A DNA stretch of 64,000 nt from assembly GCA_012439925.1 (NCBI GenBank), contig GCA_012439925.1_4519.1. The stretch is one strand, 5' to 3'. Below, in pieces: positions 4,724 to 38,798 of this stretch. Numbering within the stretch: position 1 is the first letter of the stretch; the number at the start of each line of letters is the position of its first letter. The stretch comes from a phage. Below the pieces are notes generated by a model, which made no database searches, was not told where the DNA came from, and saw nothing but the letters and a program-made list of their open reading frames with translations. The translations under genes were made by a program, and so were the position numbers.

Positions 4724-4924
4724 ATGGAGAACAACATGGAGTATTCAACTGGACAACATCTTCTCGTTGTCCCTGAAATTAAAAAATATGTTTTGACCAA
4801 TACGTTTTCAGGTGAAGAACATATTGTTACTGAACAAATGCTCAAATCTGCTTTTAAAGATGAGTATAATAAAATAATGTCTAATCGCAATTCCGCATGG
4901 ACAGTTACCGACTTCTACGAATAA
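4724..4924 (+). CDS. Hypothetical protein
   Basis: ATG ORF between genes 46 and 45. Confidence 0.45.
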   Translation: MENNMEYSTGQHLLVVPEIKKYVLTNTFSGEEHIVTEQMLKSAFKDEYNKIMSNRNSAWTVTDFYE

Positions 4925-4936
4925 GAGAGAAATAAT

Positions 4937-5353
4937 ATGTTTACTACTGCTAAAGGTTTCACTGCTGCTGATCTGAAAGTTACTTCTATCCGTACTGACG
5001 CTAACCCACATAACCATAATCGTGTTCGTAAAGCATGGGTCCTGCATTGTGATGACGCAAGTGCTAAAAAACTCCAATCTTTGCCGCAAGAAACTCGTTT
5101 TATGATTTATGGTTTTATTGATAATGATGTGTCTGATATGTGGATTCATTTGATGCGTAAGCACTATAAAGATTCTATCGAAGCAGGTGCTAAAATCGTT
5201 CTTGATAAAGACGGTTCTGAACGCCTTGAAGATTTTTACTGTGTTGATGCCGACGAACAACTAATTGCAGCTGGCGAAATTGTTGCTTCTAAAATTCCAG
5301 AATATATTGAATCACTGCCTGAAGCTATTAAAAAGCAGATGGTTGCTGCATAA
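4937..5353 (+). CDS. rpbA: RNA polymerase-binding protein RpbA-like
   Basis: Position immediately upstream of gene 45 and remembered similarity to T4 RpbA (MFTTAKGF...). Confidence 0.5.
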   Translation: MFTTAKGFTAADLKVTSIRTDANPHNHNRVRKAWVLHCDDASAKKLQSLPQETRFMIYGFIDNDVSDMWIHLMRKHYKDSIEAGAKIVLDKDGSERLEDFYCVDADEQLIAAGEIVASKIPEYIESLPEAIKKQMVAA

Positions 5354-5395
5354 TAAATTTGTTATAAACTTTGAATTGTCTTGAAAGGAAATAAA

Positions 5396-6082
5396 ATGAA
5401 ACTGTCTAAAGATACTATCGCTATTCTGAAAAACTTTGCCTCTATTAACTCTGGCATTCTGCTGAGTCAAGGTAAATTTATTATGACTCGTGCAGTTAAT
5501 GGCACCACTTATGCGGAAGCAAATATCTCTGATGAAATTGATTTTGACGTAGCACTTTATGATTTGAATAGCTTCTTAAGCATTTTGAGTCTAGTGTCTG
5601 ATGATGCCGAAATTTCAATGCACACTGATGGCAATATTAAAATTGCAGATACACGTTCCACAGTTTATTGGCCTGCCGCTGACAAGAGCACCATTGTTTT
5701 TCCTAATAAGCCAATTCAATTCCCAGTGGCTTCTGTGATTACTGAAATTAAAGCTGAAGACCTTCAACAATTGCTTCGAGTTTCACGTGGTCTTCAGATT
5801 GATACAATTGCTATTACAAATAAAGATGGTAAAATTGTTATCAATGGCTATAATAAAGTTGAAGATTCCGGACTAACTCGTCCTAAGTATTCTTTGACTC
5901 TTACCGATTATGATGGTTCTAACAACTTTAACTTTGTAATCAATATGGCTAATATGAAAATCCAGCCAGGTAACTATAAAGTAATGTTGTGGGGAGCTGG
6001 TGATAAAGTTGCAGCTAAGTTTGAAAGCTCTCAAGTAAGTTATGTTATTGCGATGGAAGCCGATTCTACTCACGACTTCTAA
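5396..6082 (+). CDS. 45: Sliding clamp gp45
   Basis: The ORF-track start at 5381 is TTG; ATG at 5396 gives MKLSKDT..., the T4 gp45 N-terminus; 228 aa; AAGGA SD. Confidence 0.9.
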   Translation: MKLSKDTIAILKNFASINSGILLSQGKFIMTRAVNGTTYAEANISDEIDFDVALYDLNSFLSILSLVSDDAEISMHTDGNIKIADTRSTVYWPAADKSTIVFPNKPIQFPVASVITEIKAEDLQQLLRVSRGLQIDTIAITNKDGKIVINGYNKVEDSGLTRPKYSLTLTDYDGSNNFNFVINMANMKIQPGNYKVMLWGAGDKVAAKFESSQVSYVIAMEADSTHDF

Positions 6083-6157
6083 GTCAAAGCTTTACGTTTA
6101 TTGTGATACGATTATGGAGGAGAAATCCTCCAGTTTAATGATAATGAGGAAAATTAC

Positions 6158-7120
6158 ATGATTACTATCAATTCCAAAGAACACATTCTAGAACAGAAAT
6201 ATCGTCCTTCTTCCATTGACGAATGTATTCTGCCTGCGTATGACCATGAAACATTCAAGTCTTTAGTATCTAAAGGAAAACTTCCTCATATTATTTTACA
6301 CTCTCCATCTCCTGGTACCGGTAAAACAACCGTAGCAAAAGCATTATGTAATGATATCAATGCCGAAATGATGTTCGTCAACGGTTCTGATTGTAAAATT
6401 GATTTTGTACGCGGTCCGTTAACTGCATTTGCTCGTTCAGTCTCAATGGAAGGCAAGCCTAAAGTTATTGTTATTGATGAATTTGACCGTAGTGGCCTTG
6501 CTGAATCACAACGACACCTTCGTACATTTATGGAAGAATTCTCTAGTAACTGTTCTATTATTATTACTGCTAACAACATCGATGGAATTATCGAACCGTT
6601 ACGTAGTCGTTGTCGAGTTATCGAATTCGGACGTCCAACCGAAGAAGATAAAATCTCAATGATGAAGAAAATGATTCATCGTATGGTTGAAATCTGTAAG
6701 AACGAAAATATCGAAATCGCTGATATGAAAGTTGTTGCAGCTCTGGTTAAAAAGAACTTCCCGGACTTTCGACGTACAATTGGTCAATTAGACCAGTACT
6801 CGTCTAAAGGTGTTCTTGATGCAGGTATTTTGTCGATTGTAACCAATGATCGCGGCACGGTAGATGATGTCATAGAAGCAATGAAAAATAAAGATATCAA
6901 ACAGCTTCGTGCGTTAGCTCCAAAATATGCCGCTGATTATTCATGGTTCATCGATAAATTAGTTTCTGAGTGTTATGACAAAGTTGCACCAGGTAAAAGT
7001 ATTATTTCGCTTTATGAAATTGCAGGCGAAAATAATAAGTTTCATGGATTAGCAAGTAATATTGAATTACATGTTATGTATATGCTTCTTCAACTGACCT
7101 GCGAACTGACTTGGAAATAA
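6158..7120 (+). CDS. 44: Clamp loader ATPase subunit gp44
   Basis: AAA+ motifs: Walker [11 protein letters not shown], Walker B VIDEFD, SRC motif LRSRC. Confidence 0.9.
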
Positions 7121-7121
7121 T

Positions 7122-7685
7122 ATGAACTTATTTGATGATGACGTCCAGCTTAACGAGCACCAAATTGCATGGAAGTCTAATGACGCTGATGCGATTCAAA
7201 AATGTGCTGATATGTTTAAAGAAAAACCTGAGAATGAATTCTTTAAAATCATTAATGCTATTAATGAAAAGAAATCTATGTCAATTGCTCAGGTCGACTA
7301 CTCAAAATTTATGGTTGAGAACTCATTATCCCAGTTCCCAGAATGTATGCCAGCCGTTTACATGATGAACTTAGTCGGTTCTGAATTAAGTGATGAAGCG
7401 CACTTCAACTATATGATGGCGGCAATTCCACGTGGTCGTCGATTCTCTAAATGGGCTAAACTAGTCGAAGACACTTCAGAGTTACTAGTTATCAAACTGT
7501 TGATGAAACATTACACAATCAACATGAATGATGCTACCGAGTATAAGCGGCTCCTTGAAAAAAATAACAAGTTGCCAATAGTCCTTAAAGAACTGAAGGC
7601 CATGGTCACTGATGAATTTCTCAAAGAAGTTACTAAAAACGTAAAAGAACAAAAACAATTTAAAAAATTAGCATTGGAATGGTAA
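7122..7685 (+). CDS. 62: Clamp loader small subunit gp62
   Basis: Synteny (44-62-regA) and size (187 aa). Confidence 0.8.
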
Positions 7686-10889: not shown

Positions 10890-11525
10890 ATGAAAACTAC
10901 TCCTATTACTATCGCTATTGACGCAATCATAAAACAAGCTTCTTCTTTGGCCGCTATGGCCAAAGTAATTAGTCAAAACTCTGCCCGATATAATGCTATT
11001 CTTGAAACTCTTCGTCGCCCTGGACTGAGTAATTATGAAAGCCGAGTAATTATTACAGGTGTTGGTAAGAACGCTAATATCGCAACTAAAGCTTCTGAGA
11101 CATTTGCTTCACTCGGTATCCCAAGTATGTACTTGAACACCGGGCATTATTCTCACGGTGATGCAGGATTCATTGCGCCTAATGATGTGTTGATTCATAT
11201 TAGTCGTTCTGGTAAGACTGAAGAAATGATAGGCGTGGCTAAGCATCTTAAAATGATTCGTCCTCAGGTTAAACAGATTCTGTTACATTGTAACCCTGAC
11301 ATTCCGCAAGAATACGAAGCTCTTTTTGATTATACGTTCTGTACCGGCATCGCGGTAGAGGTTGATGAGAATTCTCTGGCTCCTACAATGTCCACTACAT
11401 TGTTGTTAGCGCTTATCGATACGTTCGCTATCAACCTTTCGTCTGAACGCGGATTTACCTCTAATGACTTCCTTAAGTTCCATCCAGGCGGTGCACTAGG
11501 TGCCATGTTACGAGGCGAACAATGA
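10890..11525 (+). CDS. SIS-domain sugar-phosphate isomerase (arabinose-5-phosphate isomerase KdsD/GutQ-like, no CBS domains)
   Basis: SIS signatures VIITGVGKNANIATKASETFASLG, HGDAGFIAPNDVLIHISRSGKTEE and APTMSTT align with the KdsD/KpsF N-terminal domain. Confidence 0.8.
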   Translation: MKTTPITIAIDAIIKQASSLAAMAKVISQNSARYNAILETLRRPGLSNYESRVIITGVGKNANIATKASETFASLGIPSMYLNTGHYSHGDAGFIAPNDVLIHISRSGKTEEMIGVAKHLKMIRPQVKQILLHCNPDIPQEYEALFDYTFCTGIAVEVDENSLAPTMSTTLLLALIDTFAINLSSERGFTSNDFLKFHPGGALGAMLRGEQ

Positions 11526-11706: not shown

Positions 11707-13392
11707 ATGAAAAAAGCTGTTATTCTTGGTGCTGGACTGGCAACTCGTTTGTATCCAATAACGCACCATATTCCTAAGGTGCTTGTTAACTATAAACAAG
11801 ACACTATTCTGAGCAATTTGTATACAATTTATTCTGACCTTGGTGCAGATGAAATTATTGTAGTAGTTCATTCAAAATTTGTTGAAACTGTTCGAGCTTA
11901 TTGTGAGCAAGAAGGGTTCAATGTGACTATTCGTACAGTTGATGAAGCGTATGGTTCTGCTTATGCTCTTGCTAAATTATACAAAGATTTAGATGGCCAT
12001 AACGTAATTGTTAACTGGTGTGATATTATTCCTGATTTTGGTTCATGGTCTTGGAATGTTAACGCAATCTATGTTAAGGGTGATGAATGTCGATATAATT
12101 TCGATGGTGAAAATATCACTAACGTAGGTTCAACAGGCGGTAATGTTGTAGGAATTTATCAGTTCAAAGACTGGGAATTCTACATGGGTTCTACTGATGA
12201 GGAAATTCACGAATACTGCAAAGGACGTGATTTCGTAGAATTCCTTTACGGCAGTGCATTCAATAAATCAGAGCTTATGAATCTAATTGATTTAGGTGAT
12301 ATGCCTAAACTTGAAAAGGCTCATGAAGTTCGTGAACTGAATCGTAGTTTTAATGCAGTTGAAATTGGCGAAGAAACTGTAACTAAATTCGCGTTAACCG
12401 AACAAGGTCGAGCTCTTCAAAAAGATGAGATTTCATGGTATTTGAAAGTGAAATCAGATTCAGTTCCTCAGTTAGTTTCGGTAAATGAAAATAATTTTGA
12501 AATGGAACGCATTAAAGGTAAGCCAGCATTTGAATATATTAAATCCAAATCAAGTCTTGCTCGTCCACAAATTGTTGATGCAATTTTAGATGCACTGAAA
12601 TTCAGCACAGACACTTATTTTGTAAGTCCTGAAACTGTTCGTCGTGATTTCACTAAAGAATTCTATACGAAAGTTATTGATCGTTGTGAAAGCATTCAAC
12701 CATTGATTGATTCATTTGGTAAAATCACACATGTGAACTACACTAAGATTGGACGGCTGAAGCCAATGCTGAAACAAGCTTTAGAACACCTTATTCGTTA
12801 TCATAACCGTTCTCAGGGACAGTACTCTGTTATTCACGGTGACCCAAACTTCAGTAATACTATGATTACTGATAACGGCGAAGTCAAGTTTATCGACCCT
12901 CGTGGATATTTTGGTGAAACCAAGATTTACGGGCCAAAATTGTATGATGAAGCTAAAGTGCTTTATGCTGTTTCAGGTTATGATGAATTCAACGCTAATC
13001 CGACCTGGGGCCAGTTTACTATTGATGAAACAACTTGTAATGTGACTATTAACATCAATCCATTAGTTTACAAATATGGAAAGATGAGTTCGTTTAACGA
13101 GTATCATCATTTGGCAGTGGCAATTATCTGGATTGCATTAGGTGGTTATTTCAAGAATAATCCACTTAAAGCGGTAGCCGCATATTATAAAGGTATGGAA
13201 CTTCTAACTAAGCAATTACGTAACATGGGCCGTGTACTTCAAGACGGCTCTATTAGTTATGACGTAGCAGAACCTGTAACGGCTACTCTGATTACAAAAA
13301 ATCCTGGTAAATGGGTACTAACTGATAAAGAAACTGGTGTTTCCTATCGTCCAATCGGTGGCGATATCACTCATCAATGGGAACGAATCTAA
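11707..13392 (+). CDS. Bifunctional sugar-1-phosphate nucleotidyltransferase / anomeric sugar kinase (MurU-AmgK-like fusion)
   Basis: N-terminal MKKAVILGAGLATRLYPIT is the sugar nucleotidyltransferase G-x-G-x-R-L motif; C-terminal HGDPNFSNTMI ... KFIDPRG are the Brenner (HxDxxxxN) and DFG-like motifs of APH/choline-kinase-fold kinases. Confidence 0.75.
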   Translation: MKKAVILGAGLATRLYPITHHIPKVLVNYKQDTILSNLYTIYSDLGADEIIVVVHSKFVETVRAYCEQEGFNVTIRTVDEAYGSAYALAKLYKDLDGHNVIVNWCDIIPDFGSWSWNVNAIYVKGDECRYNFDGENITNVGSTGGNVVGIYQFKDWEFYMGSTDEEIHEYCKGRDFVEFLYGSAFNKSELMNLIDLGDMPKLEKAHEVRELNRSFNAVEIGEETVTKFALTEQGRALQKDEISWYLKVKSDSVPQLVSVNENNFEMERIKGKPAFEYIKSKSSLARPQIVDAILDALKFSTDTYFVSPETVRRDFTKEFYTKVIDRCESIQPLIDSFGKITHVNYTKIGRLKPMLKQALEHLIRYHNRSQGQYSVIHGDPNFSNTMITDNGEVKFIDPRGYFGETKIYGPKLYDEAKVLYAVSGYDEFNANPTWGQFTIDETTCNVTININPLVYKYGKMSSFNEYHHLAVAIIWIALGGYFKNNPLKAVAAYYKGMELLTKQLRNMGRVLQDGSISYDVAEPVTATLITKNPGKWVLTDKETGVSYRPIGGDITHQWERI

Positions 13393-13778: not shown

Positions 13779-13835
13779 TAATTTAAGTAAGACCTGCAAA
13801 AAACCATCGCATCAATTAACGTGAGATGCAAAAAA

Positions 13836-14996
13836 ATGAATACTTTTAAAATCGGAACGAATTTTGATTTAGCTCTTCTTGATAAAATCGTAGAGCTCAA
13901 TAAAACTTATCCTAATAGCTTGATAAACGAAGTATATGGCTCTACAAGAGAAATGGCTTTTGTAGCAGCCAGACCTGATTTTAGGCTTCCTGACGTTGAC
14001 AAAAAGATGTTAGAAGACTACGTTAAACGTTGTAACGAATTAGGTATTTGCTTTAACTATACACTCAACACGATAAATCCTGGTTCAAAAAGAGAACTAG
14101 TTGAGTGGAAGAAGAAAGCTATTCAGGATTATGTTCAGTATCTTTGGTCAATAGGCGTATGGCGTATTACTATCGCTAACCCTGTTGTTATGGAAATTGT
14201 TCGTGAAGTCAATAAAGATATTGAGATTGAAGTTTCAACAATTCTACATGTTGATGCTGTAACTCAAATCAAATACTTGCATGACCAATATAACATCAAA
14301 AAGGTCTGTTGCGGAATTCATAAGAACCGTTCAGTTTCTTTCCTGAAGCGTGCAGCAGAGTTTTGCAATAAGAACAATATAATATTTGAAGTTCTTGTAA
14401 ATGAGTTCTGTTCTAATGCTGGTAAAGGGTATACAACACATTGTAGCTATCGTGACTCTTGCTATATTTTCCATAGTACTGATGTTACCGCTGATGATGC
14501 TAAATCCTTAAATGGATATCCTATGCAGCACTGTATTAAAGCTCGTGATACAGACCCATTTAACTGGCTGAGAACTCGTTTTGTTCGTCCTCAAGATTTG
14601 AAACTTTATAATGATATTGGTATCACTCAATTCAAAGTTTCAGGACGTACAGGTAGCACAGACTACATTTTGAAAGTTCTTGAAGCATACGCTTCTGAAA
14701 AGTTTGAAGGTAATTTGTTAGAACTGTGGAAGCCTTTAGAGACTATTTTCACTCTTGAAAATGAGACTGAGTTTTCACATACAGTAAATATTGAAACCTC
14801 TTTGTTAGATGGCTTTTTAGAAAAAAGGTGGTTCAGACATCCAGATTTTGATTGTGCTAATGAAATCTGTGGGTCAACGTGTACATATTGTGAAAGGTAT
14901 TATAAACGTCAATTATCTAAAAACGGGTTAGCAGAAAACTCCATATCTATTATTGATATAACTAACTCTGATGACGCTTTGAGGTACCCGGAATGA
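13836..14996 (+). CDS. U32-family protein (peptidase U32 / RlhA-TrhP-UbiU-like fold)
   Basis: Blockwise correspondence with U32 proteins (RPDFRLP ... GICFNYTLNTIN ... NPVVMEIVRE ... EVSTILHVDA ... FEVLVNEFCS) plus a C-terminal Cys cluster CANEICGSTCTYC. The ORF-track start at 13821 is GTG; the first ATG is 13836. Confidence 0.6.
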   Translation: MNTFKIGTNFDLALLDKIVELNKTYPNSLINEVYGSTREMAFVAARPDFRLPDVDKKMLEDYVKRCNELGICFNYTLNTINPGSKRELVEWKKKAIQDYVQYLWSIGVWRITIANPVVMEIVREVNKDIEIEVSTILHVDAVTQIKYLHDQYNIKKVCCGIHKNRSVSFLKRAAEFCNKNNIIFEVLVNEFCSNAGKGYTTHCSYRDSCYIFHSTDVTADDAKSLNGYPMQHCIKARDTDPFNWLRTRFVRPQDLKLYNDIGITQFKVSGRTGSTDYILKVLEAYASEKFEGNLLELWKPLETIFTLENETEFSHTVNIETSLLDGFLEKRWFRHPDFDCANEICGSTCTYCERYYKRQLSKNGLAENSISIIDITNSDDALRYPE

Positions 14997-15232
14997 TTTC
15001 TAGAAAAAGTTTTAATTATAAACTTAACGAAGAGATTTTGACTATGAAACTGAACACTAACGAACAAATTCTTAAAAAGGCCCTTATGGGCCTGTTTGAA
15101 ACCAAAGCGGCTAAAGTGATTAAAGAACCTGTTCAATTGGAATACTACACTGATGCATTCCTTCATAGTGTTCTTGGAAGTATAGATTCTGAAGCTTTAC
15201 GGTATATCAACACTGCCAAGAAATTCAAATAA
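14993..15232 (+). CDS. Hypothetical protein
   Basis: ATGA overlap with the U32 gene; GAGG SD. Confidence 0.45.
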   Translation: MISRKSFNYKLNEEILTMKLNTNEQILKKALMGLFETKAAKVIKEPVQLEYYTDAFLHSVLGSIDSEALRYINTAKKFK

Positions 15233-15274: not shown

Positions 15275-15991
15275 ATGGGAAAACATAACACAATGAAATA
15301 TATCAAAGCCGCAGATTTTCAAACCGCATTTAAAGCAGTCAATCGTGAAATTTTAGAAAACCCGGAATTCGTAACTGATTCTCGTATTGGACGTTGTAAT
15401 GAAATTGGGTCTATGACAGTAGTTGTTGACACTCCATCATCATTCAAAATGACCGACCCACGTATTAACCGCATCTCTTATGAATATGCCGAAGACTTCT
15501 GGAAGTTTATGATTTCTGGTGGTACCAACGCAGAAGAAGCGTTTAAGGCATATCCTAATGTCGCTAAATTTATTTCTAAACCAAAATCAGATGTTTTGCC
15601 GGCGAACTTCAACACTTTCTATGGTCCTCGCATTGCGGCCCAATTACCAACTCTTCTAAAAGAACTTAAAGAAAAACCTAACTCTCGAAGAGTTGTGTTC
15701 CAAATTCTAGAAAGTTCTGATCAGGCTTTGCTTGATTCGGACGAAACACTTGAATATCCATGTACTGACTCAGTAACTTATTATATTCGTGATGGTAAGC
15801 TTTATACCCACTGTCATATGCGTTCTCAGAACTGTGCTGTTGTTATGCAGTTGGATTTTTATCTCCAAGGAAAATTACTTCATTATATCGCTAACGAATG
15901 CGGTGTAGAAGTTGGTGATTATACTCATACCATGGTAAGTGCCCATGTGTTTGAACGTGATTTTGATTATGTTAAAGGATTCCTTGACTAA
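15275..15991 (+). CDS. 42: dCMP hydroxymethylase gp42 (thymidylate-synthase fold)
   Basis: TS-superfamily core PCTDSVTYYIRDGKLYTHCHMRSQNCAVVMQLDFYLQ (catalytic Cys and the RS(Q/N) block); 238 aa; located between 43 and uvsX as in T4. Confidence 0.7.
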   Translation: MGKHNTMKYIKAADFQTAFKAVNREILENPEFVTDSRIGRCNEIGSMTVVVDTPSSFKMTDPRINRISYEYAEDFWKFMISGGTNAEEAFKAYPNVAKFISKPKSDVLPANFNTFYGPRIAAQLPTLLKELKEKPNSRRVVFQILESSDQALLDSDETLEYPCTDSVTYYIRDGKLYTHCHMRSQNCAVVMQLDFYLQGKLLHYIANECGVEVGDYTHTMVSAHVFERDFDYVKGFLD

Positions 15992-16890
15992 TGGCTATTT
16001 TCCGCGTACCTATCTTGAGTATGCGGTCTTATGAAACTGGACAGTATGCTATCCTTAAGGATGGCAACTTCCAACTTCATTTGCACCGTGCTAATCCGGG
16101 TGATGCGATTACATATCCACGTAATGCATCTGATATTAAAGAATGCGAACGTCTTTTCCCAGAATTTAAGTTTGTTCCATTATGGTATAAAGATAACGCG
16201 TATAACACTCGTAAATATTTCTGGACTGAAAATGAATTTGTAGTTGATTCATTAATTGATTATTATGATTGTGATTTTCTAATCACAGATATCACCGGTT
16301 ATGGCGGCGCTTTTGATGTGGAATTCAATTTCAATATCACTGCAGACCCTAATAAACCACGCTTTTATATTGATGAATTCTTAAAAACCGATATGTTGTC
16401 AGTTAATCGTTCACTTCAAACTACTGTGTTGAATGAACGTCAAAAGGAAGTGCTGGTTAACGCAGGTGCAGATGGTAATAAGATTATTGTAACGCAGAAA
16501 GTTATACGTCCTTCCATCATGCAGCGTCTTGTAGGTGATTTGGCTCCTATTCATCTAGATGGTATTTTTCATCCATTTCGAATTAGTGACCCATGTTATC
16601 GTTTTGAACAAGTGGTTGAATGTGCAATTCAATTAGGTCAACCGCTTTATATAACTGATCCAAATAATAGCTTTGACAGAAATAAGTATCCTGAAGAAGC
16701 GCTGATTCGAATTTTTAAACCAACTAAAACTGAGTACTATCAAATTCTTAAAGGACGTCCGAAGATTCAATATTTCGAAAATCCTGAAGAAGTATTCCAT
16801 CCAGGTCTTGGTGAGTTCATCTACTTTAATGCTTTAATTTCTTCACCGTATAATATACCTAAATACGAAGATGTCGTAATCGAGGAATAA
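15991..16890 (+). CDS. Hypothetical protein (299 aa) at the beta-gt locus
   Basis: TAATG overlap with gene 42; occupies the position of beta-glucosyltransferase in T4 but has no similarity to it that I can see. Confidence 0.6.
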   Translation: MAIFRVPILSMRSYETGQYAILKDGNFQLHLHRANPGDAITYPRNASDIKECERLFPEFKFVPLWYKDNAYNTRKYFWTENEFVVDSLIDYYDCDFLITDITGYGGAFDVEFNFNITADPNKPRFYIDEFLKTDMLSVNRSLQTTVLNERQKEVLVNAGADGNKIIVTQKVIRPSIMQRLVGDLAPIHLDGIFHPFRISDPCYRFEQVVECAIQLGQPLYITDPNNSFDRNKYPEEALIRIFKPTKTEYYQILKGRPKIQYFENPEEVFHPGLGEFIYFNALISSPYNIPKYEDVVIEE

Positions 16891-16891
16891 A

Positions 16892-17440
16892 ATGGCTAAA
16901 ATTATTTTAGTAGACGGCCCAGATAATGCTGGTAAAACAACTTTCATTAATGACATAATGGAAATTAGTGAAAGATATGTAAAGATTGATTTCCCTAAAC
17001 GAACAGTTGATGGACGTTTCGATGTTAAGTCTCGAAATGAAGTTGGTTGTTTCGAAACGATGTTGAATTATTTAGACCCTACTAAGATTTATCTGTTAGA
17101 CCGTGGATATATTAGTAACTGGGTTTATGGACGTATTCGACAAGATGCGGACTCGGTTCTTGACGTTTATGAACAGGACTATGTTCGTCTTTGCCAAAAC
17201 CATGATGTGTTCACAATTATTTTAACACGTAACGAAATGACTGAAAGTTTTGAAGACGACCTTATTACTTTGTCTTCATTCGGTTTTAATACAGTCATTT
17301 CACATTTTGAAGAGTTTGCAATTCATAACAAAATCCAAACGTATCAATTACTTAATCATGATGGTTCTAACAAAGTTATAGGATTTAATGCAAGCGAACG
17401 TAATAATTTGATTACAGAAATCATCAAATGGGCTCGTTAA
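16892..17440 (+). CDS. Thymidylate-kinase-like P-loop nucleotide kinase
   Basis: P-loop IILVDGPDNAGKTT and LLDRGYISNWVYG resembling the TMPK DR(Y/H)xxSxxAY motif. Confidence 0.5.
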   Translation: MAKIILVDGPDNAGKTTFINDIMEISERYVKIDFPKRTVDGRFDVKSRNEVGCFETMLNYLDPTKIYLLDRGYISNWVYGRIRQDADSVLDVYEQDYVRLCQNHDVFTIILTRNEMTESFEDDLITLSSFGFNTVISHFEEFAIHNKIQTYQLLNHDGSNKVIGFNASERNNLITEIIKWAR

Positions 17441-17538
17441 GAGCCATTTAAAGTTTTAAATGCTGTATAACCCTTAGTATATAATCGTCTTATCTTTTAA
17501 ACATGAGTAAAATATAATGATGCCTATGGAAAAATACA

Positions 17539-18711
17539 ATGTCTGATTTAAAATCTCGTCTGATTAAAGCTTCTACTTCTAAAATGACTGCGGACTTGAC
17601 TAAGTCTAAGCTGTTTAATAATCGTGATGAAGTCCCTACTCGTATTCCGATGTTGAATATCGCACTAGGTGGTGCTCTGAATGCAGGATTGCAATCAGGC
17701 TTGACTATTTTTGCTGCACCTTCTAAACACTTTAAAACGCTGTTTGGACTAACTATGGTTGCAGCATATATGAAGAAATATAAAGATGCAATCTGTTTGT
17801 TTTATGACTCAGAATTTGGTGCTTCAGAATCTTATTTTCGTTCAATGGGTGTTGATTTAGACCGTGTAGTTCATACTCCGATTCAATCTGTCGAACAACT
17901 TAAAGTTGATATGACTAATCAGCTTGACGCTATTGAACGCGGTGATAAAGTTATTATCTTTATCGATTCAATCGGTAATACTGCATCTAAGAAAGAAACC
18001 GAAGATGCATTGAACGAGAAAGTCGTAGGTGATATGTCTCGTGCTAAGGCACTTAAATCTCTGTTCCGTATTGTGACCCCGTATCTGACTATTAAAGATA
18101 TTCCATGTGTTGCAATCAACCATACAGCAATGGAAATCGGCGGACTATATCCTAAAGAGATTATGGGTGGTGGTACAGGTATTCTTTACTCTGCTAACAC
18201 TGTATTCTTTATCTCTAAACGTCAGGTTAAAGAAGGTACAGAATTGACCGGTTATGACTTCACGTTGAAAGCAGAAAAATCTCGTACAGTTAAAGAGAAA
18301 TCTACTTTCCCAATCACGGTTAATTTTGATGGCGGTATTGATCCATTCAGTGGCTTGTTAGAAATGGCAACTGAAATTGGATTTGTTGTTAAGCCTAAAG
18401 CCGGTTGGTATGCTCGCGAATTCCTTGACGAAGAAACAGGTGAAATGATTCGTGAAGAGAAATCGTGGCGTGCTAAAGCTACTGATTGTGTAGAATTCTG
18501 GGGACCGTTGTTTAAACACAAACCTTTCCGAGATGCAATTGAAACTAAATATAAACTAGGTGCTATCTCTTCTATTAAAGAAGTTGATGACGCTGTTAAC
18601 GACCTTATTAATTGCAAAGCAACAACTAAAGTTCCTGTTAAAGCTTCTGATGCTCCGTCTGCAGCAGATATAGAAAACGACCTTGACGAAATGGAAGATT
18701 TCGATGAATAA
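17539..18711 (+). CDS. uvsX: Recombinase UvsX (RecA-like)
   Basis: RecA fold with Walker A FAAPSKHFKT; 390 aa; synteny. Confidence 0.9.
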   Translation: MSDLKSRLIKASTSKMTADLTKSKLFNNRDEVPTRIPMLNIALGGALNAGLQSGLTIFAAPSKHFKTLFGLTMVAAYMKKYKDAICLFYDSEFGASESYFRSMGVDLDRVVHTPIQSVEQLKVDMTNQLDAIERGDKVIIFIDSIGNTASKKETEDALNEKVVGDMSRAKALKSLFRIVTPYLTIKDIPCVAINHTAMEIGGLYPKEIMGGGTGILYSANTVFFISKRQVKEGTELTGYDFTLKAEKSRTVKEKSTFPITVNFDGGIDPFSGLLEMATEIGFVVKPKAGWYAREFLDEETGEMIREEKSWRAKATDCVEFWGPLFKHKPFRDAIETKYKLGAISSIKEVDDAVNDLINCKATTKVPVKASDAPSAADIENDLDEMEDFDE

Positions 18712-24208: not shown

Positions 24209-25231
24209 ATGGCTGAATGGATAGATAATGAATTTGCTTATCGTGCGTTTTCTCACCTCCCTCGTTTTAGACAAATCAATAATTCAAGCACATTTAAATT
24301 AACATTTCGATGCCCAGTTTGTGGCGACTCTCAGACAGATGCAATGAAAGCCCGCGGATGGTATTACGGCGGTACTCCAGGTAATGTGCATTGCTATAAC
24401 TGTCAATACCACAATACAATTTCCGGATACTTAAAAGAGTATGATGAAGAGCTTTATCGCGAATATCTAATGGAAGTTCGTAAAGAAAAAGCTAGAATGG
24501 AACCGAAGATTGAAAAGGTTCCTGAACATAAACCAGAACCGGAGAAAAAGACTATAAATTCTTTGCCGTCTTGTTCTCGTCTGGACAAGTTGCCTGAAGA
24601 GCATCCTATTGTGAAATATGTTAAGTCTCGGTGTATTCCTAAAGAATCATGGAACAGATTATGGTTCACATTAGAATGGCCTAAATTGGTCAACAAGATT
24701 CAACCAGGCACGTATAAGAAAGAGATTCCAGAACCGCGTTTAGTGATTCCTATTTTTAATAAAGATGGGAAGGCCGAGTCATTCCAAGGACGTGCACTTC
24801 GTAAAGATGCTCCTCAAAAATATATCACTATTAAAGCGTTTGAGTCTGCAACAAAAATTTATGGTGTTGAACGTGTTAAGGAAGGAGACGTCTGGGTAAT
24901 GGAAGGCCCTATTGATAGTTTATTCATACCCAATGCAATCGCTATTACAGGCGGCTCGATAGATTTAGATGTGGTACCATTTAAAGAACGTCGGGTATGG
25001 GTAATGGATAATGAACCTAGGCATCCGGATACTATAGCTCGCATGAAGCGATTAGTTGATGCAGGCGAACGTGTCATGTTCTGGGATCGAGCTCCATGGA
25101 GATCAAAGGATGTGAATGATATGGTAATGAAAGAAAATGCAACACCACAAGAAATTTTAGAATATATGAAACAGAATATTTCAAGTGGGTTGCATGCTAA
25201 AATGAGATTATCTCGTTATTCGAAGATTTAA
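24209..25231 (+). CDS. 61: DNA primase gp61
   Basis: Zinc ribbon CPVCGDS ... CYNCQ and toprim-like VMEGPIDS ... MDNE; 340 aa. Confidence 0.9.
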   Translation: MAEWIDNEFAYRAFSHLPRFRQINNSSTFKLTFRCPVCGDSQTDAMKARGWYYGGTPGNVHCYNCQYHNTISGYLKEYDEELYREYLMEVRKEKARMEPKIEKVPEHKPEPEKKTINSLPSCSRLDKLPEEHPIVKYVKSRCIPKESWNRLWFTLEWPKLVNKIQPGTYKKEIPEPRLVIPIFNKDGKAESFQGRALRKDAPQKYITIKAFESATKIYGVERVKEGDVWVMEGPIDSLFIPNAIAITGGSIDLDVVPFKERRVWVMDNEPRHPDTIARMKRLVDAGERVMFWDRAPWRSKDVNDMVMKENATPQEILEYMKQNISSGLHAKMRLSRYSKI

Positions 25232-25425
25232 ACAAGTCCTATAATAGCAAAGGCCAAATCAACTACAGTATCCAATGGAACAGAAGGAACTATAATACCA
25301 TGGGCAACTAACAATGGTGCAATCCCGAAGTTCCATGAAATAATGCCACCTACAACTATTGCGGCGATAGCAGTTTTCTTTTTATTGCCTTTAATAGCGT
25401 TGATTAACGATGGAAGTTTAAACAT
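25228..25425 (-). CDS. Small membrane protein (65 aa) on the opposite strand
   Basis: Strong SD (AAGGAG, 5-nt spacer) on the - strand; hydrophobic AIAAIVVGGIISWNFGIAPLLVAHGIIVP; its stop overlaps the gene 61 stop. Confidence 0.45.
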   Translation of the reverse strand: MFKLPSLINAIKGNKKKTAIAAIVVGGIISWNFGIAPLLVAHGIIVPSVPLDTVVDLAFAIIGLV

Positions 25426-25513
25426 AATATCTCCTTAGTTACCTATTATTTATTACGCTTTATAAAATTAATGTTATAATTAACTCTCTTATACTGAATT
25501 GAAAGGAAAAATA

Positions 25514-37697: not shown

Positions 37698-38798
37698 ATG
37701 AAAGTTATGTTTATCCCATCTCGCGCAGTCCCATTTAACCCAGAACGTGTACAAGGTGGTCTTGAAGCAGTACATTTAAATGTGTTGAAATATCTTGTGT
37801 CCATCGGTGCTGATATTGATTATATCGGCTTTGATAATGACACATTTGGTGATTGGAAGGTTAATCATCATCCTGTTGGTCATCTGACTAAATTCAGTCT
37901 AGGTATGAGTTATACTATGGCTCGTAAGATTGTTGAACTAGCCGGCATTAATGAGTACGATTTCGTTGTTACAATGGAACCGACCAAACTAACCGTTCAG
38001 GCAATTAAAGACGCAGGTCTTTCTAAAGTTCATAAGAATTTTATGGCAACACCATTTGAACCAGTATCTCGTGGCATTGTTCAAATTTGGGACCAGACTA
38101 TTCAAATTCATAAGAACGGTGGTAAGAGTTATGCTCCTACTAAAGCCTTCCGTGAATTTGAACGTAAATATTGTTATATGACTTCAGGTCTGACTGACAA
38201 AATTGATTATGATTATTGGCGAGCAAATCCGTTGTTTGAAGCCGAAGATTATCCGGTTATTTGTTTGAATGAGAAACCTGAAGTTCTTCCGGCGACTGAT
38301 CTGATTATTAGTGCACAACGTTATGACACTAAAATGCGTCGTACTGATGTTGCTCTTGAAGCGATTAAAGCACTAGGCGAAAATGGTATTGGTTATTGTC
38401 CTAGTAAATGGGCACCACCGGCTAAGTATCCTGTTATTATTGATGCTCCACACGGTGAAATCATGGAACGTCTTAAAACAGCTAAAGCACTTATCAATAC
38501 GTGTCCTGACACGGGTACGGTAGAGAATAGTTCTATTGAAGCCATCTCTAAAGGTGTCCCTGTAATTCAGTTAGTTTTTAAGGATTATCCTCATGCGACA
38601 TTCGAATACGACCCAGATACTGTGCGTGTAGAAATTGATTCCTCTACTCCTAAGAAAGAAGTAGTTGCGCTTTACACAAAAGCTGTATTAGAATTCACTG
38701 ACACATACGAAGCTCGAGTTAAACGTGCTGAAGCAGTATGGAAGAAGTATAACCGAGATGCAGTTGTTGCGATGTGGGATAAAATCTTCACAGCGTAA
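37698..38798 (+). CDS. GT-B-fold glycosyltransferase (candidate DNA sugar transferase)
   Basis: N-terminal MKVMFIPSRAVPF ... GG.E and C-terminal TGTVENSSIEAISKGVPVIQ resemble GT4-type donor-binding motifs; T4 has no such gene between 39 and rIIA. Confidence 0.6.
   Translation: MKVMFIPSRAVPFNPERVQGGLEAVHLNVLKYLVSIGADIDYIGFDNDTFGDWKVNHHPVGHLTKFSLGMSYTMARKIVELAGINEYDFVVTMEPTKLTVQAIKDAGLSKVHKNFMATPFEPVSRGIVQIWDQTIQIHKNGGKSYAPTKAFREFERKYCYMTSGLTDKIDYDYWRANPLFEAEDYPVICLNEKPEVLPATDLIISAQRYDTKMRRTDVALEAIKALGENGIGYCPSKWAPPAKYPVIIDAPHGEIMERLKTAKALINTCPDTGTVENSSIEAISKGVPVIQLVFKDYPHATFEYDPDTVRVEIDSSTPKKEVVALYTKAVLEFTDTYEARVKRAEAVWKKYNRDAVVAMWDKIFTA

Follow-up and report, generated by a model that had tools for sequence, protein, structure and literature searches.

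A predicted GT-B glycosyltransferase and a thymidylate kinase-like protein in the beta-gt position of a Mosigvirus genome: probable members of the RB69-type arabinosyl-5-hydroxycytosine pathway

The window (the whole analysed stretch of 64,000 nucleotides of phage DNA) belongs to a Mosigvirus, and the two genes following its ThyA homolog correspond to sugar-transferase and nucleotide-kinase genes already known from RB69-type phages. We consider it probable (at roughly 0.6) that the locus encodes the known RB69-type arabinosyl-5-hydroxycytosine pathway, composed of hydroxylation, a kinase acting on 5-substituted dCMP, and transfer of the first arabinofuranose (Araf) by a 299-aa protein. The participation of the pair in modified-nucleotide metabolism, proposed earlier from a sequence-only reading, is supported by the identity of the pathway with the RB69 genes; the modification, which that reading had named arabinosyl-hmC, is arabinosyl-5-hydroxycytosine according to the literature. 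The pathway was worked out in 2025-26 in RB69, DLP3, HY126, Bas46 and LC53. As both genes are known RB69-type pathway genes, the locus has nothing unusual for phages of this group, and the window (97.5% DNA identity with RB69 over these genes and 99% identity with other Mosigvirus isolates) adds no noteworthy new member. The comparative data, i.e., a fixed gene module and the occurrence of the kinase with other ThyA-type base modifiers, narrow the hypotheses on a modification that blocks restriction enzymes and CRISPR-Cas; such modifications also set the sensitivity of therapeutic phages to type IV restriction and glycosylase defences.

Gene content and order of the locus

The following features were distinguished in the window:

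10890..11525, + strand: arabinose-5-phosphate isomerase (RB69 gp55) of the sugar-donor pathway (NCBIfam KpsF/GutQ, 1.9e-32, and KdsD, 6.9e-31; RB69 annotation)
11707..13392, + strand: bifunctional nucleotidyltransferase and sugar kinase (RB69 gp52:53; AfhE-like), making UDP-arabinofuranose (Pfam NTP_transferase and an APH-like C-terminus; PMC13326640)
13377..13778, + strand: HAD-type sugar-bisphosphate phosphatase (RB69 gp51; AfhF-like) (phrog_1238; NCBIfam capsule biosynthesis phosphatase, 4.6e-13)
13821..14996, + strand: Peptidase-U32-family protein (RB69 gp50) (Pfam Peptidase_U32, 7.4e-11; weak UbiU match)
15275..15991, + strand: hydroxylase gene, ThyA-superfamily dCMP 5-hydroxylase (5hodCMP synthase; RB69 gp48 orthologue) (Pfam Thymidylat_synt, 1.9e-15; RB69/PDB identity; D169N signature)
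15989..15993, + strand: TAATG stop/start overlap between the hydroxylase and glycosyltransferase genes (direct sequence reading)
15991..16890, + strand: predicted 299-aa compact GT-B glycosyltransferase (RB69 gp46:47 / DLP3 gp79 orthologue; phrog_3891)
16888..16894, + strand: TAA-A-ATG, joining the glycosyltransferase gene to the kinase gene; GAGGA precedes the ATG by 8 nt (direct sequence reading)
16892..17440, + strand: 182-aa P-loop nucleotide kinase of thymidylate-kinase fold (RB69 gp45 / DLP3 gp78 orthologue; phrog_761)
37698..38798, + strand: second GT-B glycosyltransferase, 366 aa (RB69 ORF003c / gp3), the predicted enzyme for the second arabinose (E 3e-248 to the near-identical "phage HY126 glycosyltransferase" of PDB 9iqz/9ir0)

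Both open reading frames (ORFs) reported from the sequence alone, 15991-16890 (299 aa) and 16892-17440 (182 aa), stand on the + strand. Homology marks them as real genes and not chance ORFs, because (i) their homologs form 136 and 27 clusters, respectively, (ii) they match PHROG families (phrog_3891 at 4.4e-155 over residues 1-298 of the 299-aa protein, and 2e-45 for the 182-aa protein), and (iii) 349 phage records carry the first and 344 the second. The TAATG coupling of the first ORF to the upstream gene was confirmed: the hydroxylase stop codon TAA (15989-15991) overlaps the start codon ATG (15991-15993). The 182-aa ORF starts one base past the stop codon of the 299-aa ORF, with GAGGA as its ribosome-binding site. 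When 10.8-17.7 kb was scanned for promoters and terminators, sites were no commoner than in shuffled sequence, and no terminator was called 3' of the kinase gene.

The gene order of T4 is 43-imm-42-beta-gt-uvsX-40-41 and that of the window is 43, arabinose genes, ThyA homolog, 299-aa gene, 182-aa gene, uvsX, 41, which agrees with the earlier proposal that the pair occupies the beta-gt slot of T4. The upstream gene, previously taken for dCMP hydroxymethylase (gene 42), was misassigned: its product shares 236 of 238 residues with RB69 gp48, carries the motif MRSQN (the D169N signature) along with the N177D and L143E equivalents, and has about 97% identity with the HY126 enzyme of known structure (PDB 9iqc/9ir2/9iqu). 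RB69 gp48 has been shown experimentally to be a flavin/O2-dependent 5-hydroxy-dCMP synthase (PMC13326640), and by homology the product of 15275..15991 is a flavin-dependent dCMP 5-hydroxylase.

The HY126 orthologue (AfhE) of the 561-aa nucleotidyltransferase protein makes UDP-arabinose (PMC13326640). Among the neighbours of the module, the U32-family gene (13821..14996) may be a better lead than the transferase/kinase pair.

The 299-aa protein as the predicted first arabinosyltransferase

The 299-aa protein had been described as having no recognisable motif. At the level of sequence this held, as no Pfam family (E<=0.1) and no relevant NCBIfam match were found, and a family-profile search of the PDB returned nothing. 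The protein is nevertheless not an unknown one, since it adopts a predicted GT-B fold and its RB69 counterpart gp46:47 is listed in the literature. The fold was revealed by structure prediction (AF2), which the sequence-only reading had suggested, and had been missed by sequence models; it comprises two Rossmann-like beta/alpha/beta domains separated by a cleft, and among its best structural matches are enzymes whose acceptors are small and phosphorylated, e.g., sucrose-phosphate synthase. On this model the protein is a GT-B fold glycosyltransferase of the GT4-like retaining type, with a presumed transferase activity. Invariant residues in the C-terminal half of the family are R197, K246 and H270-P271-G272; a canonical EX7E motif is not evident. 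R12, K23, R33 and R74 are likewise invariant.

The orthologue RB69 gp46:47 / DLP3 gp79 is listed as "arabinosyltransferase 1", an activity predicted there (Lee et al., NAR 2026, PMC13326640). RB69 gp46 and gp47 (ORF047c+046c) are one ORF, split in the reference by a single extra T; without this T, it equals the 299-aa ORF. Apart from a few amino-acid substitutions, the protein of the window shows no difference of substance from RB69 gp46:47 / DLP3 gp79. He et al. (2026, Nat Chem Biol) and Mahler et al. (2025, Cell Host Microbe) aside, no enzymatic activity has been demonstrated in the literature for the 299-aa or the 182-aa protein, and further literature on arabinosylated phage DNA gives no biochemical detail for the two genes.

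Neither protein was found in T4 with the family HMMs, so the presence of both in that phage, which the earlier reading had considered damaging to its proposal, was not observed. The transferase HMM had no match in the whole T4 genome, beta-gt included, and the kinase HMM gave nothing but a 13-bit P-loop match to gp1. The possibility that the 299-aa protein is a diverged beta-gt was ruled out by this lack of homology; standing where T4 has beta-gt, it would be an analogue of that enzyme in function and not a relative. It is 50-100 residues smaller than T4 beta-/alpha-gt, its pI is about 5.1 against 9.05 for beta-gt, and its presumed reaction differs from those of both T4 enzymes in the sugar (arabinofuranose) and in the acceptor, which would be a phenol-like 5-OH and not a hydroxymethyl group. 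The family as a whole is acidic (median pI 5.15). Net charge was rejected as indecisive for telling whether a transferase binds DNA, as T4 alpha-gt is acidic as well (6.11).

The "second sugar-transfer or editing step" envisaged earlier for these genes was right as to sugar transfer, yet the 299-aa protein is most likely the first transferase and not the second. The 366-aa transferase was found only in Mosigvirus, which has one copy and di-arabinosyl DNA, and in Acinetobacter phages, which have two copies and tri-arabinosyl DNA; it had no match in Serratia, Shewanella, Klebsiella, Proteus, Yersinia or Enterobacter phage records, and the groups without it include those to which LC53 and Thanatos, both with mono-arabinosyl DNA, belong. 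Orthologues of the 299-aa protein were found in Mosig-, Dhaka-, Marfa-, Karam- and Winklervirus-type phages, in Acinetobacter phages and in Thanatos. The phylogenetic profile proposed as a check thus placed this family in every arabinosyl-5-hydroxycytosine (5hoC) lineage, mono-arabinosylated ones included (modification states from the literature), with T4 lacking it. Because the 366-aa enzyme is limited to di- and tri-arabinosyl phages, the 299-aa enzyme is most likely the universal, first transferase, and it is predicted to attach the base-proximal alpha-arabinofuranose to the 5-OH of 5-hydroxycytosine.

A conserved module and its kinase

The genes for hydroxylase, transferase and kinase make up a conserved module wherever this could be assessed among the 48 viral loci that encode a transferase at least 33% identical to that of the window. 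The hydroxylase gene lies directly upstream of the transferase gene in 46/48 loci (both misses start inside the transferase gene), the kinase gene lies within the cluster in 46/48, and all four misses are contig ends. The module reaches far beyond T4-like phages and is retained in loci without UDP-arabinose genes within 5 kb (L002, L030-L043). Genus counts for transferase and kinase match between their 349 and 344 phage records; for comparison, UvsX occurs in 1848.

In very distant loci (L051, L052, L055 and L063) the kinase gene is followed by a GT1-like gene. In related phages of about 50 kb (L064), it adjoins a non-hydroxylase ThyA homolog that retains D169 (hydroxymethylase/thymidylate-synthase type), with no relative of the 299-aa transferase. 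The L064 arrangement implies that the kinase travels with the base-modifying enzyme and not with the transferase, and its occurrence there without this transferase favours a modified-dCMP kinase. Two candidates were rejected by hhalign: a 200-aa ORF between hydroxylase and transferase of a jumbo contig (L001) as a kinase (probability 0.3%), and the 293-aa neighbour of the L064 kinase, which has no Pfam or PHROG match, as a transferase relative (0.4%).

The 182-aa protein shares 180 of 182 residues with RB69 gp45. The thymidylate kinase (TMPK)-like motifs noted earlier are present, GPDNAGKTT at residues 9-17 and LDRGYISNWVYG at residues 69-80, and the best structural matches are TMPKs, with a P-loop NMP-kinase fold. 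In two alignments the Walker A GxxxxGK[ST] and DR motifs of the family are invariant (G9-K15-T16 and D70-R71), and the P-loop Lys and DR motif remain so from Straboviridae through the approximately 50-kb PolIII-alpha phages. In comparison with the thymidylate kinase family (PF02223 / TIGR00041), the protein is alike in fold, P-loop, FPxR-like segment and DR motif, but it is about 30 residues shorter and falls below both curated thresholds: its TIGR00041 score is 16.9 bits against a cut-off of 83.25, and PF02223 does not match it, although 13 of 22 relatives match weakly (best E 2e-4). A PDB search with the single sequence gave P-loop noise alone, e.g., RecA and thioredoxin; a profile search with the family gave weak TMPK matches. 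In a motif comparison with TMPK reference sequences, taken as a lead only, the kinase has Asn12 where type I TMPKs carry the P-loop Arg, and its LID-equivalent segment is acidic (ESFEDDLI), with R113 as the only nearby arginine.

In the literature, RB69 gp45 / DLP3 gp78 / RL38J1 gp214 carry the label "nucleotide kinase" in a table, with no step assigned (PMC13326640); our analysis adds fixed module membership (46/48 loci) and the company of other ThyA-type base modifiers. The phosphorylation of a modified dNMP, suggested before, is plausible for a kinase of TMPK fold, and its substrate is likely a 5-substituted dCMP rather than dTMP.

Proposed pathway and alternative explanations

In the preferred reading the module, ordered hydroxylase, glycosyltransferase, kinase, would be transcribed and translationally coupled, and would act in three steps: (i) the ThyA homolog, with flavin and O2, would convert dCMP into 5-hydroxy-dCMP, as reported for the 99%-identical RB69 protein; (ii) the 182-aa kinase would use ATP to turn 5-substituted dCMP into the diphosphate, contributing to the supply of 5-hydroxy-dCTP for the phage polymerase and duplicating in part, in T4-like phages, the function of the gp1-type dNMP kinase; and (iii) the 299-aa enzyme, with its predicted fold, would move arabinofuranose from phage-made UDP-Araf to the cytosine 5-OH, giving a base-proximal alpha-linked sugar. 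By analogy with known phage DNA glycosylations, the default stage of the third step would be DNA, after replication; the separate 366-aa transferase would then put the second arabinose on the DNA.

A dedicated kinase would be needed because mere traces of 5hodC are incorporated in E. coli when the hydroxylase is expressed by itself (PMC13326640). When the hydroxylase is expressed with gp159, the RB69 gp1-type kinase, which phosphorylates 5hodCMP in vitro, 5hodC readily enters DNA (PMC13326640); the function of the 182-aa kinase likely overlaps with that of T4 gp1 (RB69 gp159). Several observations speak against the pathway: (i) a second 5hodCMP kinase seems redundant in T4-like phages, as gp159 already handles this substrate; (ii) the kinase has Asn in place of the type I P-loop Arg, an acidic LID and scores below the dTMP-kinase thresholds; (iii) the transferase family is acidic, unlike T4 beta-gt (though T4 alpha-gt is acidic too); (iv) purified DLP3 transferases left 5hoC-containing DNA unmodified in vitro (PMC13326640); and (v) UDP-xylose pyrophosphorylase activity was reported for the Thanatos orthologue (PMC12838424).

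The redundancy with gp159 gives weight to an alternative that we regard as possible though improbable, in which sugar is added before replication: the 299-aa enzyme would arabinosylate 5-hydroxy-dCMP, the TMPK-like kinase would serve the resulting arabinosyl-5-hydroxy-dCMP, and the glycosylated dNTP would be polymerised. The extra kinase would then have a reason to exist, as gp1-type and host kinases would reject so bulky a nucleotide. The adjacency or overlap of kinase and transferase genes in nearly all lineages, including the very distant ones with a GT1-like gene, is in keeping with this order of events, as are the small size and acidity of the transferase, its structural similarity to enzymes with small phosphorylated acceptors and the reported complete replacement of cytosine by at least mono-arabosylated forms. 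Moreover, the purified DLP3 transferases, tested individually with UDP-Araf or UDP-Arap, did not arabinosylate 5hoC-containing DNA, and according to the authors it cannot be told whether the first-sugar acceptor is a mononucleotide or DNA (Lee et al., PMC13326640). Such a route would explain the failure of these enzymes on 5hoC-DNA and would be the first natural nucleotide-level DNA glycosylation. Against it, the later arabinoses go onto DNA (PMC13326640), 5hodC readily enters DNA upon expression of the hydroxylase and gp159, and the arguments from charge and fold are weak. The L064 kinase, placed beside a hydroxymethylase/thymidylate-synthase-type ThyA homolog, fits a kinase for the modified base. 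To our knowledge, every characterised phage DNA glycosylation is post-replicative (T-even alpha/beta-gt).

It is unlikely that the 182-aa protein is a plain dTMP kinase that boosts dTTP and is unrelated to cytosine modification. Its closest structural matches, its FPxR and DRxxxS motifs (TMPK-like in the motif comparison) and the name "thymidylate kinase" in many records (a RefSeq name) are consistent with such a role, but the scores given above for TIGR00041 and PF02223 are not, and T4-like phages are annotated as phosphorylating dTMP via gp1 already. Furthermore, the gene always lies inside the modification cluster and was found only in phages with the hydroxylase-transferase module, T4 and about 1500 other UvsX-encoding records being without it.

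It is very unlikely that the 299-aa protein is an NDP-pentose pyrophosphorylase making the sugar donor, and not a cytosine transferase. This activity was reported for its 48%-identical orthologue in the same position of Shewanella phage Thanatos: His-tagged TH1_063, described by its authors as a glycosyltransferase-fold protein, formed UDP-xylose from UTP and xylose-1-P (LC-MS) and showed no transfer to plasmid DNA, dCMP, dCTP or cytosine (PMC12838424). The negative transfer result is uninformative because none of the acceptors had a 5-OH, and a co-purified host GalU-type activity may be the source of the product. The reported pyrophosphorylase activity is unsupported by the fold and gene context of the 299-aa protein: the predicted fold is GT-B and not that of a nucleotidyltransferase, the genuine nucleotidyltransferase domain sits in the 561-aa neighbour, whose HY126 counterpart AfhE makes UDP-arabinose, and the family persists in loci without nearby sugar-activation genes.

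Least probable is a kinase acting on a non-nucleotide or polymer (the cytosine 5-OH in DNA, by analogy with the 5-hydroxymethyluracil DNA kinase of thymidine-hypermodifying phages, or a pentose), as the bridging ether oxygen of arabinosyl-5hoC derives from 5hoC and needs no leaving-group activation, the sugar phosphorylations belong to the 561-aa AfhE-like protein, and TMPK-specific motifs are conserved in the 182-aa family.

Organization and distribution of the module

The genes considered here, with coordinates and strand in the window, are:

13821-14996, +, Peptidase-U32-family gene, corresponding to RB69 gp50, inside the arabinosylation cluster
15275-15991, +, ThyA homolog (238 aa), from the ORF list
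15991-16890, +, 299-aa ORF, from the ORF list
16892-17440, +, 182-aa ORF, from the ORF list
17539-18711, +, uvsX, followed by gene 41, from the ORF list
37698-38798, +, 366-aa GT-B glycosyltransferase, equivalent to RB69 ORF003c, between the topoisomerase gene and rIIA

A TAATG overlap joins the ThyA-homolog gene to the 299-aa gene, and the 182-aa gene starts one base past the stop codon of the latter, with a GAGGA ribosome-binding site ahead of it. The sequence-only reading had assigned the pair to the slot of beta-gt in T4 (gene order 43-imm-42-beta-gt-uvsX-40-41), and this placement is confirmed. The kinase motifs that it cited were found in the 182-aa ORF, and both ORFs are genuine genes, with numerous homologs for each. 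Across the kinase stop codon lies a 5-bp GC-rich hairpin (GGCTC-GTTAA-GAGCC; 17431-17445, + strand), followed by an A/T-rich stretch; since it was not called in a terminator scan, it could be no more than a weak terminator or an mRNA-stability element ahead of the uvsX promoter region.

Megablast placed the window in the RB69-like genus Mosigvirus (best match Escherichia phage CCU7, 99.3%), with 152 records covering at least 80% of it. The RB69 reference has an identical gene order (p048, p047+p046, p045, uvsX), the DNA identity over the three genes being 97.5%; the ThyA homolog and the kinase are identical at 236 of 238 and 180 of 182 residues, respectively. In the RB69 record (NC_004928.1), the transferase region at 24597-25497 has one extra T, corresponding to approximately window position 16535, so that two ORFs, ORF047c and ORF046c, stand in place of one. 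The window and other Mosigvirus genomes carry the intact 299-aa ORF.

Both genes are already described in the literature. Arabinose was reported in RB69 DNA, and ORF003c was proposed as the transferase (Thomas et al., 2018; PMC6024577). The base was later redefined as 5-hydroxycytosine that carries one or two arabinoses through an ether link (Lee et al., bioRxiv 2025; NAR 2026, PMC13326640), and in vivo evidence identifies the ThyA homolog gp48 as a flavin- and O2-dependent 5-hydroxy-dCMP synthase (PMC13326640). The Durham-collection paper gives the same modification picture for Mosigvirus NP. Of the initial interpretation, the proposals of modified-nucleotide phosphorylation and of sugar transfer are retained; the hydroxymethylase and the arabinosyl-hydroxymethylcytosine pathway are outdated.

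Of 50,697 phage records, 349 encode the transferase and 344 the kinase, and the counts per genus agree; UvsX is encoded in 1848 of the same records. HMMs of both families, run against the complete T4 genome, returned nothing but a 13-bit P-loop match to gp1. The loci analysed were 58 from IMG/VR and 2 metagenome contigs. At the 48 loci with a transferase at least 33% identical, the hydroxylase and kinase are present wherever the contig allows, the former immediately upstream in 46 and the latter within the cluster in 46. The trio also occurs in a 356-kb jumbo-type contig, in a 122-kb contig and at loci without UDP-arabinose genes nearby, and it stays together in both Mosigvirus (hydroxylase-transferase-kinase) and Dhakavirus (kinase-hydroxylase-transferase). 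In the 122-kb metagenomic contig (L002), a Flavodoxin_2/FMN-reductase-like gene (4739-5293, + strand) is located directly upstream of the trio; its product could plausibly provide the flavin-dependent hydroxylase with reduced flavin.

Proposed order of sugar transfer

The 299-aa protein has no match in Pfam, NCBIfam or PDB sequences. Its AlphaFold model, built from a 53-sequence alignment (mean pLDDT 95.1), predicts a GT-B fold. The model resembles retaining enzymes, in keeping with the alpha linkage reported for the base-proximal sugar (Lee et al.). The family is acidic (median pI 5.15), which is indecisive, because T4 alpha-gt is acidic too.

The 366-aa transferase is present in 212 records, nearly all of them from Mosigvirus, with one copy, or from Acinetobacter phages, with two, and gave no match in Serratia, Shewanella, Klebsiella, Proteus, Yersinia and Enterobacter phages, in which the 299-aa enzyme is present. 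It is near-identical to the solved glycosyltransferase of phage HY126 (PDB 9iqz/9ir0). Its copy number (0, 1 or 2) tracks the reported mono-arabinosyl (LC53, Thanatos), di-arabinosyl (RB69, Bas46, NP) and tri-arabinosyl (DLP3) states. Phage HY126 and Afh genes were reportedly treated by He et al. in 2026. The distribution of both transferases, taken with the modification states, points to the 299-aa enzyme as the universal, base-proximal transferase and to the 366-aa type as the one that would extend the chain, in agreement with the proposal of Lee et al.

The orthologue of the 299-aa protein in Shewanella phage Thanatos, TH1_063, was reported to be a UDP-xylose pyrophosphorylase that transfers no sugar to DNA, dCMP, dCTP or cytosine (PMC12838424). 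This negative result is uninformative, since every acceptor tested lacked a 5-OH group; with a GT-B fold predicted for the protein and the true nucleotidyltransferase being its 561-aa neighbour, pyrophosphorylase activity is very improbable. Lee et al. treat the "deoxypentose-cytosine" of Thanatos as arabinosyl-5-hydroxycytosine, which it probably is.

Role of the 182-aa kinase

The 182-aa protein failed curated dTMP-kinase models (TIGR00041, 16.9 bits against 83.25; PF02223, no match). Its AlphaFold model has a pLDDT of 87.3. The P-loop Gly/Lys, an Asp-Arg motif and Tyr79 are invariant in a wide kinase alignment, which makes an active kinase very likely. A provisional comparison with TMPK reference sequences gives it Asn at the type I P-loop Arg position and an acidic LID-equivalent segment.

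The text of Lee et al. (PMC13326640) does not discuss this TMPK-like kinase. Of two models compatible with the module, we favour its action on 5hodCMP, with the transferase acting on DNA. Alternatively, the transferase would glycosylate 5hodCMP and the kinase would phosphorylate the glycosylated nucleotide. This would accord with the redundancy of the kinase with gp159, a gp1-type kinase that phosphorylates 5hodCMP in vitro (PMC13326640), and with the negative in vitro test of transferases on DNA, individual DLP3 enzymes having shown no activity on 5hoC-DNA (Lee et al., PMC13326640). However, the kinase is found with base-modifying enzymes even without a 299-aa-type transferase, which favours 5hodCMP as its substrate and leaves glycosylation at the nucleotide level unlikely.

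By profile search, some 560 remoter relatives of the kinase were recovered, most of them in phages of approximately 50 kb with a PolIII-alpha polymerase.

Genes in the slot upstream of the polymerase in five of these phage loci
L051, L052, L055: kinase, GT1-like, U32
L063: kinase, radical-SAM, GT1-like, U32
L064: kinase, unrelated 293-aa protein, ThyA homolog with Asp169

In L063, the gene of the radical-SAM/SPASM protein (5519-6541, + strand) separates the kinase gene from the GT1-like gene, ahead of U32 and PolIII-alpha, which points to yet another variation in the modification chemistry. In L064 (Clostridium sp. GCA_016650095.1, 50.9-kb contig; 5001-7246), the kinase, a 293-aa protein of no detectable family and the ThyA homolog precede PolIII-alpha. 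Because this homolog keeps Asp169, it is not of the hydroxylase type and is predicted to be of the hydroxymethylase or thymidylate-synthase type; the set may form a different, uncharacterised pyrimidine-modification module.

The U32-family gene

For RB69 gp50, the only label is "sugar or heterocycle reductase", in a table of Lee et al., whose text does not discuss it (PMC13326640). The U32 family includes TrhP, RlhA and UbiU/V, factors of prephenate-dependent, O2-independent hydroxylation (PMC6599085, PMC10990095), and the sole NCBIfam match of the window protein is a weak one to UbiU. The clusters of L051, L052, L053 and L055 contain a U32 gene, in three of the four directly after the GT1-like gene, and no ThyA homolog was found within 5 kb; the sister phage L064 has a ThyA homolog in the corresponding slot ahead of the polymerase. 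This arrangement points to another route to 5-hydroxycytosine, possibly an anaerobic one, in which the U32 protein may be the cytosine C5-hydroxylase. In the window, a conserved 79-aa ORF (phrog_8601, RB69 gp49; 14993-15232, + strand) is positioned between the U32 gene, whose stop codon it overlaps, and the hydroxylase gene; only some of the lineages bearing the U32 gene have this ORF.
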